Shown piece after piece: positions 14,432 through 39,800 of a stretch of DNA of 44,422 nucleotides. A program made the position numbers and the translations under genes. Position 1 is the stretch's first letter; each line of letters begins with the position of its first letter. The stretch lies in sequence record OZ035764.1, one strand, 5' to 3'. Source of the stretch: Kagunavirus 536P11. The notes beneath the pieces were generated by a model. It searched no databases. It saw only the letters and a program-made list of their open reading frames with translations, and was not told where the DNA came from.

Positions 14432-14623
14432 TCACTTCTCGTTAACATTCGAGTTGCACGCCCAGATTAAAATAAATACCCACGGCAGCAGAACCCAACC
14501 AAGAAACAGATTAGCCATGAATATCGCCAACTTCGCTTTATGGTTGCGGAAATACGCAACCAGGAAAGGTGTGAAATAAGCGAGAAGTGCAAACAGAATT
14601 AAGGAAATTGGTAAACTTGACAT
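14432..14623 (-). CDS. small membrane protein, superinfection-immunity (Imm)-like
   Basis: 63 aa, two TM helices; FLGWVLLPWVFILIWA resembles Imm-family signature. Confidence 0.45.
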   Translation of the reverse strand: MSSLPISLILFALLAYFTPFLVAYFRNHKAKLAIFMANLFLGWVLLPWVFILIWACNSNVNEK

Positions 14624-14653
14624 TTTAAAACCCTCTATTGTTGGTGTAAGTGA

Positions 14654-14682
14654 ATAGTACGCTATTATATTGGGGTGCGCAA
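14654..14682 (-). promoter_or_regulatory. early promoter with operator (TTGCGC-17-TACTAT, core AATAG-N4-CTATT)
   Basis: minus strand reads CACCCCAATATAATAGCGTACTATTCACTTA, near-identical to 37391-37423. Confidence 0.55.
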
Positions 14683-14789
14683 GTAGTGTGTTAGAATAAT
14701 TTTGCGCCTAGTGTCGCACACGAAAAGCGGGTGGTTCCCGTCTGGCGCATTTCCTTTAACCAGTAACCTCTTAACCAAAGGATTAAAGA

Positions 14790-15206
14790 ATGAAACTTTC
14801 TGATTTTTATTTCGAAGACAAAGCGCTGGTAGGCAAGAAGATGCCGATTCTGCTGCCGAATGGCGAAGACTCCGGTGAGTGGCTTAACGTTGTAAATCCG
14901 GATGCGGACGCCGCCGTTAAAGCCGGGCGTGCTTTCATTATCGCGTACCGCCGCGGTCTGGCGCGTTTTGAAGAACTGGAAAAAGCTGCCAAAGAATCCG
15001 GCGACTATACTGAATATAACCTGGCGGTTAACGAACTGGCGGAAGACCTAAACCGGCAACTCGCGGCAGAAGTCGTAAACGGCTGGAGCTTTGACGAGCC
15101 ATTCTCTAAGGAAGCGTTTAACAAATTGCTCGATCAGTTCAAAGCATTAGGCACACAGGTAGCGGCGTTCCATAACGCTGAGCGCAAAGCATTACAGGAA
15201 AAGTAG
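14790..15206 (+). CDS. tail assembly chaperone (G-like)
   Basis: 138 aa ORF directly upstream of tape measure; -1 frame is open from 15182 through 15571. Confidence 0.6.
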   Translation: MKLSDFYFEDKALVGKKMPILLPNGEDSGEWLNVVNPDADAAVKAGRAFIIAYRRGLARFEELEKAAKESGDYTEYNLAVNELAEDLNRQLAAEVVNGWSFDEPFSKEAFNKLLDQFKALGTQVAAFHNAERKALQEK

Positions 15207-38097: not shown

Positions 38098-38298
38098 ATG
38101 AGTGTGTGGATTAAGTGTAGCGAGCAGGTTCCGTGCAGCGAGCCTGGCCGATGGTCAAAAGATGTTATCGCGCTAAGTGATACTGGGGATGTGTTTCGTC
38201 TGGCCTGTCAAGGTGAATACTGGCAAAGAACGTCAGCGTTTGTCGAATCCGGTTCCGAAAAAGTGGTTGCATGGGCGCCGTTACCCGAGGAGGACTAA
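38098..38298 (+). CDS. DUF551-like protein
   Basis: MSVWIKCSEQ...AWAPLPE; paralogous to 38449-38640. Confidence 0.55.
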   Translation: MSVWIKCSEQVPCSEPGRWSKDVIALSDTGDVFRLACQGEYWQRTSAFVESGSEKVVAWAPLPEED

Positions 38299-38448: not shown

Positions 38449-38640
38449 ATGGGTGAGTGGATTAAGTGTAGTGAGCGGATGCCGGAAAAGCTTGATGATG
38501 TGCTGGTTACTGATGGCGAGCATGTCGAGGTTAAATGGTGGAACGGTAATATTTGGGGTTGTTGGTCACCGCGTAACTCAGATATTGGTTACAAAGATGT
38601 AACTCACTGGATGCCGTTACCGCAGCCGCCAGAATTGTGA
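38449..38640 (+). CDS. DUF551-like protein
   Basis: MGEWIKCSERMPEK...HWMPLPQPP. Confidence 0.55.
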   Translation: MGEWIKCSERMPEKLDDVLVTDGEHVEVKWWNGNIWGCWSPRNSDIGYKDVTHWMPLPQPPEL

Positions 38641-38682
38641 TGTTATATTGTAACAATAGTTTGAGATTTTACTGAGTGACTT

Positions 38683-38720
38683 ACGCTGCTACACAGCAGC
38701 GTATCATTTTTCTCATTTTT
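38683..38720 (+). terminator. intrinsic terminator (ACGCTGCT-ACAC-AGCAGCGT then T-rich tract)
   Basis: after DUF551-like gene stop. Confidence 0.6.
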
Positions 38721-38797
38721 GTTCTATTTCACGAAACGCAACAATCGAAGCGACTATTGCAGGAGATGCAACAATACACAACACCAATAAAATTTAC

Positions 38798-38830
38798 TTG
38801 CACACTAGGATAGAATAGGCTACTATTCAT
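38798..38830 (+). promoter_or_regulatory. early promoter with operator (TTGCAC-17-TACTAT, core AATAG-N4-CTATT)
   Basis: TTGCAC 38798-38803, TACTAT 38821-38826. Confidence 0.55.
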
Positions 38831-38857
38831 TTACACAAACGAGGGGGAGAGATAGAG

Positions 38858-38989
38858 ATGAAATACGAAATTTTAGACGTATTTGGATTAGCAAAGATTT
38901 ATGCGACACTCGGCTGGGTTATTGTTTGTGATGGGGACACAAAACGCGCCCACACTGAGGGTATTGAGGTGCAAGAAGATGAACAATAA
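38858..38989 (+). CDS. hypothetical small protein (43 aa, not in ORF track)
   Basis: RBS GAGGGGGAGAG before ATG 38858. Confidence 0.4.
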   Translation: MKYEILDVFGLAKIYATLGWVIVCDGDTKRAHTEGIEVQEDEQ

Positions 38990-39320
38990 AAACGAAGTAT
39001 TCGAGTACCTGATTGACCAGCTACGGCAGCAGGTAAATAACGACCAGTGCGAAGACCTGGCGCACGAGGTGTTGTCACTTAAGAATCAGTTACGTGATAC
39101 GTCGGAGCTGGTGGATGAGCTACTTGGGACAATAACGCTAATGAACGGGGATACGGTTGCCGTAAGGGAAATGCCCGCGAGTGCTGCCATAACTGGCGAT
39201 TCGTTAATGGCAAGGCTCCCGCCGTATGTATTAATTGCGGCGTGGCTAAATCCGGAGAGTGCAAACACGAGTGGGAGTATTATTACCCAAACGGCAGGCG
39301 TTGTACCAAATGCGGGGTGA
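38979..39320 (+). CDS. hypothetical protein; 3' part may continue in the -1 frame (Cys-rich, ending 39331)
   Basis: ATG 38979 with RBS GAGGTG; alternate frame 39119-39331 encodes a Cys-rich zinc-ribbon-like segment whose stop overlaps the next ATG. Confidence 0.4.
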   Translation: MNNKNEVFEYLIDQLRQQVNNDQCEDLAHEVLSLKNQLRDTSELVDELLGTITLMNGDTVAVREMPASAAITGDSLMARLPPYVLIAAWLNPESANTSGSIITQTAGVVPNAG

Positions 39321-39327
39321 TAAACTT

Positions 39328-39531
39328 ATGACCAGCATTCTTTTTATCTGGGTACTGTCCGCGGGCCAGATGCAACTCGCGGCATCAGAAACGTTTTACT
39401 CGATGGAGGCGTGCCAGTCGGCGGCACGCGCCGCAGAGAACGCGCACTTCCTGTTCCAGAGCGACAAGCCAAATGATTCAGAGGTACGCGCTATTTGCTC
39501 ACCTAAGCGACTTGGTAAACAGGAGAAGTGA
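39328..39531 (+). CDS. small secreted/membrane-like protein
   Basis: hydrophobic N-terminus MTSILFIWVLSA; ATG 39328 preferred over track start 39259. Confidence 0.45.
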   Translation: MTSILFIWVLSAGQMQLAASETFYSMEACQSAARAAENAHFLFQSDKPNDSEVRAICSPKRLGKQEK

Positions 39532-39533
39532 TT

Positions 39534-39800
39534 ATGGTACAGAGATATGAGTTATCGGAAAAATGGGGCCAGCCAGAGATGGCGAAGTATGACTACGGCG
39601 ACTATGTAGAGTACAACAGCTATAAGGAACTGGACGACTATTACCAGGAACGCATCGCCGATGCCAACGAGGAAATAGAGGTTCTCGTCGCAAGACTGGC
39701 GGAAGTAAACGCCGAGTTACAGAAATACAAAGACCAGTTCCCGGATTACGTCGAGTGTGCGAACTGTGGGTCAATTACACATGTGGAAGGGTTGGAGTAA
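39534..39800 (+). CDS. hypothetical protein
   Basis: ATG 39534 with RBS AGGAG preferred over track start 39528. Confidence 0.45.
   Translation: MVQRYELSEKWGQPEMAKYDYGDYVEYNSYKELDDYYQERIADANEEIEVLVARLAEVNAELQKYKDQFPDYVECANCGSITHVEGLE

Follow-up and report, generated by a model that had tools for sequence, protein, structure and literature searches.

A probable one-base deletion parts two putative zinc-binding modules from the start of a Kagunavirus accessory gene

The locus described here raises the question of whether a Cys-rich reading frame that begins within gene 38979-39320 of Kagunavirus 536P11 (record OZ035764.1) is the C-terminal part of that gene and, if so, whether the two frames are separated by a mutation, by an error in the deposited sequence, or by a programmed change of frame. 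The window, which is the whole stretch of 44,422 nucleotides analyzed in the present study, represents the complete genome (~44.4 kb) of a Kagunavirus (Guernseyvirinae) coliphage, and its best matches in a phage collection were fFiEco03 and fPoEco01, with ~91% identity over ~83% of the last 14 kb. The small accessory genes among which gene 38979 is found form a row on the plus strand, flanked by the helicase-primase/HTH genes on one side and by the holin-endolysin cassette on the other. Upstream of this row is a non-coding gap of 217 nt (38641-38857) with a terminator-like hairpin at 38682-38703 (9-bp stem and T-run), past which the 43-aa gene listed in Table 1 is the first gene; a simple scan of the gap detected no sigma-70-like promoter. 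The explanation that we favor, and hold to be quite likely, is a real, recent, and private one-base deletion (one A lost at ~39151, which turns GGGGAAT into GGGGAT) at the boundary between the N-terminal domain and the zinc modules of an accessory gene of the phrog_6094 family.

The coordinates and frames that an earlier note had given for this region from the letters of the sequence were confirmed (Table 1). The -1 frame encodes ...YGCRKGNARECCHNWRFVNGKAPAVCINCGVAKSGECKHEWEYYYPNGRRCTKCGVINL and contains eight Cys, including CxxC pairs, while FVNGKAPAVCINCGVAK is an example of a junction or zinc-module peptide. As the note had stated, this frame has no usable start: the first ATG, GTG, or TTG is the GTG at 39242, and no Shine-Dalgarno-like sequence is found before it. 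The overlap of its stop with the next ATG was also found in the sequence, and the same ATGA stop/start overlap is present in phage 26, hz69, and DUEC01.

Table 1. Coordinates of the features at and around the disrupted gene
Feature	Position	Strand	Remarks
Upstream gene, 43 aa	38858-38989	+	11-nt overlap with the start of gene 38979 (ORF list; gene calls on the Logan contig)
Gene 38979-39320, frame 0	ATG 38979 to TGA 39318-39320	+	113-aa product, C-terminal end ...LMNGDTVAVREMPASAAITGDSLMARLPPYVLIAAWLNPESANTSGSIITQTAGVVPNAG
N-terminal helical (coiled-coil-like) domain	38979-39149	+	Codons 1-57, MNNKNEVFEYLIDQLRQQVNN...TLMNG; start codon still in frame
Open -1 frame	39119 (after TGA 39116-39118) to TGA 39329-39331	+	Translation ...ERGYGCRKGNARECCHNWRFVNGKAPAVCINCGVAKSGECKHEWEYYYPNGRRCTKCGVINL
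Frameshift site	39147-39152	+	GGGGAT in the window, GGGGAAT in the closest relatives (DNA alignments)
Out-of-frame tail of the annotated ORF	39150-39320	+	56 aa, DTVAVREMPASAAITG...VVPNAG, then TGA 39318-39320
Stranded C-terminal coding segment, -1 frame	39152-39331	+	59 codons and TGA; linker, zinc modules 1 and 2
Zinc module 1 (CxH...CxxCG)	39182-39241	+	-1 frame translation
Zinc module 2 (CxH...CxxCG)	39260-39316	+	-1 frame translation
Downstream small gene, 67 aa	39328-39531	+	ATG overlaps the stop of the Cys frame (ATGA 39328-39331)

Regarding the origin of the two frames, a tblastn search with the 59-aa Cys-rich translation matched 25 phage records, the best at E=9e-27, and these scores are far beyond chance. 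The relatives examined comprised 17 distinct isolate phages (phiWAO78-1, RP180, DUEC01, phage 26, hz69, Bas70, 22664BS2, AV104, ZCEC5, vB_kpnM_D1, LM02P1, BCH953P1, 5sent1, GZMU_E2010, ZCSE9, BUCT789, and Henuyfy11N) and three metagenome contigs (L007, L008, and L014). In all 20, the N-terminal MSNKNEVFEYLIDQLRQQ...LRD...TLMNG and the zinc modules are continuous in one ORF, and the N-terminal part of the window gene is 75-88% identical to many homologs. The four sequences closest at the junction (phage 26, L007, L008, and L014) have AACGGGGAATACGG where the window has AACGGGGATACGG, so that their codons AAC GGG GAA TAC GGT TGC (N G E Y G C) correspond to AAC GGG GA- TAC GGT TGC in the window. 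The deletion was placed by DNA alignments with phage 26, L007, and L008 (A1 and A2) together with the sequence of L014; the missing A leaves a single A at 39151 after GGGG 39147-39150, and the codon affected is the 58th of ~117 in the ancestral gene. These comparisons show that the ancestral gene was a single ORF of ~117 aa, the zinc modules of which are now in the -1 frame without a start codon. The suggestion made earlier that a frameshift within gene 38979 had parted the zinc-module segment from its start was thus borne out by the 20 single-ORF relatives and by the absence of conservation in the tail frame.

The same relatives indicate which of the two frames past the junction has been maintained. 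In comparisons with seven relatives, pN/pS past the junction was 0.20-0.35 in the Cys frame vs 1.3-4.0 in the annotated tail frame. In six of the seven, the equivalent +1 (tail) frame is interrupted by between one and three stops; it is open in relatives only where GTG GCT AAA (Val-Ala-Lys) replaces GTG ACT AAA. The protein repaired at the junction matched phrog_6094 over residues 1-113 (E=1.9e-32), whereas the annotated product matched it over residues 1-68 only (E=8.4e-28). In a search of 5.8 billion proteins, the tail, of which the stretch EMPASAAITGDSLMAR is a part, was covered solely by the identical protein P0001. Judged from these ratios and matches, purifying selection is shown to have acted on the Cys frame and not on the annotated tail frame, and the tail at 39150-39320 is, on the same grounds, not a conserved coding frame. 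The outcome that the earlier note had named as fatal to its proposal, namely orthologs in which only the annotated frame is conserved and the Cys frame is interrupted by stops, is the opposite of what the ortholog comparison yielded, since the Cys frame is conserved within one ORF and the stops fall in the tail frame. The out-of-frame tail also showed a weak match to phrog_30590, a family of 40 aa (E=0.0046, residues 82-109), which hints that wrong-frame ORFs over the zinc modules may have been annotated in other phages and clustered into a PHROG.

The stranded frame itself has no stop in 59 codons and retains all eight ligand positions, and neither further disabling mutations nor relaxed selection, as in an old and decaying pseudogene, was found. 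Because the 59 codons and the ligands are intact and the pN/pS ratio of this frame is low, the event appears to be recent, or else an error. The ligands form two Cys-His-Cys-Cys modules, C69/H71/C84/C87 and C95/H97/C109/C112 in alignment A3, in which C69, C84, and C87 are invariant and H71, C95, H97, C109, and C112 are conserved in at least 90% of the sequences; all eight are present in the -1 frame of the window. Each predicted module follows the pattern E-C-x-H-x-W-x(7-10)-C-x-x-C-G and presents four metal ligands in two knuckles. The zinc-ribbon-like character ascribed to this frame in the earlier note holds for six of its eight Cys together with two His, which occupy conserved ligand positions, while the remaining two Cys lie in the linker and at a variable position. 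Concerning curated zinc-ribbon families or solved folds, there was no Pfam match above the cutoff, the best Foldseek match in the PDB had E=1.4, and a sequence profile search of the PDB gave no match below E=0.1. The modules are predicted from their sequence to be zinc-ribbon-like and putatively zinc-binding.

The main rival to a genuine private deletion, and a less likely one, is an error of sequencing or consensus building, in which case GGGGAAT is the true sequence, the 117-aa gene of the phage is intact, and only the deposited sequence has the deletion. The perfect condition of the stranded frame, with its 59 codons and all of its ligands, would suit such an error, as would the G4 run adjoining the site; the lack of further decay in this frame is to be expected of a sequencing error as much as of a very recent mutation. 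The allele has also been seen in this one genome alone: P0001 is a cluster with one member, both contigs that carry it are the same phage, and an exact-pattern scan for the same allele with GGGGA(N)TACGG returned 0 matches in IMG/VR, 0 in genome contigs, and 1 in metagenomes, the last of which is the intact GGGGAAT form. Against an error, the independent Logan assembly of run ERR12949609 is identical to the window over 6342 nt including the deletion, and the same 113-aa protein was called on it. Its single contig of 44452 nt probably stems from a k-mer graph that closed on itself, which would imply accurate and deep reads; the excess of 30 nt over the window of 44422 nt equals k-1 for k=31, as would fit a genome with permutation or terminal redundancy that was assembled at k=31 into a closed circle. 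Moreover, the lost base belonged to a run of two A and not to a long homopolymer, and no true frame change was found in other conserved genes of the window (tblastn of 70 fFiEco03 proteins). We consider a consensus error to be unlikely on this balance.

Programmed -1 ribosomal frameshifting or transcriptional slippage near 39147-39152, which would yield a short and a full-length product, is suggested by a second frame that has no start codon and a stop coupled to the next gene, and by the shift being needed exactly at the domain boundary. However, the earlier note was correct in that no canonical slippery heptamer is visible: X_XXY_YYZ does not occur in frame 0 in 39100-39320, neither the P-site nor the A-site tRNA re-pairs at C GGG GAU after a -1 slip, and re-pairing is poor at all codon pairs in 39120-39180. 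Transcriptional slippage typically involves at least eight A or T in a row where the shift occurs; the longest homopolymers in 39100-39330 are GGGG at 39147 and 39314. The 121 nt of 39140-39260 form no unusual fold (MFE -38.4 kcal/mol vs a shuffle mean of -38.1, z = -0.08), the two-frame layout is not conserved in any of the 20 relatives, and the other split members of the family are split at different places. Since signals are absent, the relatives need no frameshift, and other alleles are broken elsewhere, programmed recoding is not supported and in our opinion is very improbable; the view that an indel and programmed recoding were equally likely therefore stands for the indel and not for recoding. 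Expression of the C-terminal part alone, from the internal GTG at 39242, appears to be even harder to credit. A GTG-initiated ORF does exist at 39242-39331, but it is preceded by TGTATTAATTGCGGC, which is not a purine-rich ribosome-binding sequence, the intact relatives use this GTG as the conserved Val codon of their CGV motif, and the 29-aa single-module peptide would have neither module 1 nor the N-terminal domain. A genuine one-base deletion remains the preferred reading.

By profile comparison, the gene belongs to phrog_6094, a family without an established function. The window locus matches the phrog_6094 profile, and its N-terminal domain and CxHxW...CxxCG modules, at least one of which would share an ORF with that domain in an intact member, are split at ~39151; the window carries, on this reading of the sequence, a disrupted allele of phrog_6094. 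The N-terminal helical domain of 57 residues is the most conserved part of the family. Searches of Pfam, NCBIfam, and PADLOC returned sub-threshold coiled-coil matches alone, such as TolA_bind_tri (E=0.07, 13.6 bits vs a cutoff of 30.1). The labels 'cell division protein' and 'TolA-binding protein' in some records go back to such sub-threshold matches. The AlphaFold2 model of P0028, an intact proxy with the same architecture, has helices at 4-20 and 24-56, a disordered linker at 56-68, and two small beta-hairpin modules, with a mean pLDDT of only 65. Foldseek comparisons of this model gave no match below E=1 in the PDB and, in BFVD, uncharacterized family members exclusively. No relevant reports came from literature searches that combined Kagunavirus with zinc or with NRG857c, or from a search with the run accession.

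The family is a mosaic (P0002-P0120). After a constant domain of ~55 aa at the N-terminus come between one and three zinc modules, which belong to several subtypes, and optional coiled-coil or SH3-like inserts (W..W.GG.CPV...DIV.YR), with a recurring SGCRKEDxQEC linker between them. Among 105 apparently intact listed members, 51 have one module, 45 have two, and 9 have three. RP180 contains a 99-nt tandem unit of linker and module with 73% identity (L002 800-947), which suggests the gain and loss of modules via recombination at the linker. Disruption is also frequent, with independent cases in other phages and metagenomes: among 120 listed homologs, ~13 look broken, whether by a shifted frame, a deletion, an early stop codon, or a missing ligand Cys. 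In P0027 (L009), one nucleotide is missing from a run of C within module 1. A large deletion in P0062 and P0074, which is found on five contigs from several samples (L010-L013 for P0062), joins TLMN out of frame to the tail of module 2, and P0094, P0045, P0108, and P0109 are shifted at other points. Ligand losses from Cys to Arg, Gly, or Trp occur in the family (P0013 and P0107 also being among the disrupted members), with one such cluster having 44 members, and DUEC01 and GZMU_E2010 carry ligand substitutions. Taken together, phrog_6094 is a modular, fast-changing, and frequently broken accessory gene.

If the deletion is real, translation from 38979 would produce a 113-aa protein in which the intact N-terminal domain of 57 aa is followed by a meaningless tail of 56 aa, and neither Cys-His-Cys-Cys module would be made beyond background frameshifting. 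The tail frame stays open until 8 nt before the next ATG, so that the downstream gene is probably translated almost as before, polarity should be small, and the mutation would be tolerable. The frameshifted alleles P0027 and P0062/P0074 similarly terminate within a few nt of the downstream ATG, and we speculate that this may reflect the survivorship of non-polar alleles. Since the family is modular, fast-changing, often broken, and without an established function, losing the C-terminus probably has a nearly neutral effect in culture. A bolder reading, which we regard as doubtful, is that phrog_6094 is a cassette-shuffling protein, in which a helical N-terminus carries swappable Cys-His-Cys-Cys modules and SH3-like inserts that are exchanged at SGCRKEDxQEC linkers and diversify in an arms race with host factors, e.g., defense systems. 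Alleles without the C-terminus, such as the present one and the 80-aa P0062 type, would then be selected host-range or escape variants and not products of neutral decay, and the survivors would be those in which the shifted frame is open to the start of the next gene. Under our preferred reading of a recent private deletion, the annotation of gene 38979-39320 needs a flag to mark it as the frameshifted form of a gene of 117 aa, and the 56-aa tail does not belong in protein databases as real sequence. The locus adds one more broken copy to a family that is a clear example of a modular and often-broken phage accessory gene, and the cassette-like diversification of this family is the sole part that is possibly worth more study.

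Several observations were made elsewhere in the window. Two genes downstream of gene 38979, an 88-aa ORF at 39534-39800 (+) has a sub-threshold Pfam match to Gad1 (Gabija anti-defence 1; E=0.0052, 16.8 bits vs a cutoff of 27), which is no more than a hint that anti-defense functions may reside in this row of genes. A 66-aa ORF at 38098-38298 (+; MSVWIKCSEQVPC...), which was not called as a gene on the identical Logan contig, matches DUF551 with 25.6 bits vs the Pfam cutoff of 22, and is a second DUF551 paralog beside the called one at 38449-38640. A second frameshift was indicated by tblastn at ~14636 and was rejected: the N-terminus of FE3_023 of fFiEco03 ('superinfection immunity protein', 109 aa; L027 14430-14759) appears to be over-extended in the annotation, its conserved part is a 63-aa ORF that is intact in the window at 14432-14623 (region 14432-14790, minus strand), and an 11-nt indel and a 1-nt indel upstream of this ORF mimicked a frameshift.

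Among known systems, the genes for the G/GT tail assembly chaperones of tailed phages, which use programmed -1 frameshifting (annotated as FE3_024/025 in fFiEco03), resemble the present locus in that a startless second frame continues the first ORF, but the latter has no slippery heptamer, stimulatory structure, or two-frame conservation in relatives. The modules share with zinc-ribbon or two-knuckle modules the CxH and CxxC ligand pairs that are ~12-13 residues apart and the predicted beta-hairpins; their weak and non-significant structural neighbors are zinc-ribbon ribosomal proteins, RPA, and the Nudix N-terminal ribbon. In contrast to generic zinc ribbons, the family has a Cys-His-Cys-Cys ligand set with a conserved Trp, and no match above the threshold in Pfam, NCBIfam, or the PDB. 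A full HMMER scan with the 59-aa segment also found tandem motif arrays in P0121, P0127, P0130-P0133, P0139, and P0145, comprising small array proteins with five to six CxHEW..CxxCG repeats and bacterial signal-peptide proteins with GHxWxxATCTxPxTCxRCG repeats. Of the bacterial proteins, one reaches 3562 aa and has 21 matched stretches, and one has an NPCBM domain. The HxW...CxxCG array repeat was not covered by any Pfam family. The tandem arrays P0132 and P0133 and the bacterial HxW..CxxPxxCxxCG repeat proteins P0127, P0145, and P0121 have the same HxW...CxxCG motif with a period of ~24-25 residues, but differ in their long arrays, signal peptides, NPCBM domain, lack of the phrog_6094 N-terminal domain, and uncurated status. 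The closest counterparts are the intact phrog_6094 orthologs of Guernseyvirinae, namely UAW06912.1 of phage 26 (Escherichia), UTQ77431.1 of hz69 ('cell division protein'), RP180_51, and QNI21785.1 of Salmonella phage 5sent1 ('putative tolA-binding protein'). The window has in common with them the MSNKNEVFEYLIDQLRQQ...LRD helical domain, the CxHxW...CxxCG modules, a location ahead of the lysis cassette, and the overlap of the stop codon with the ATG of the next gene, and differs from them in that its gene is split by a 1-nt deletion.
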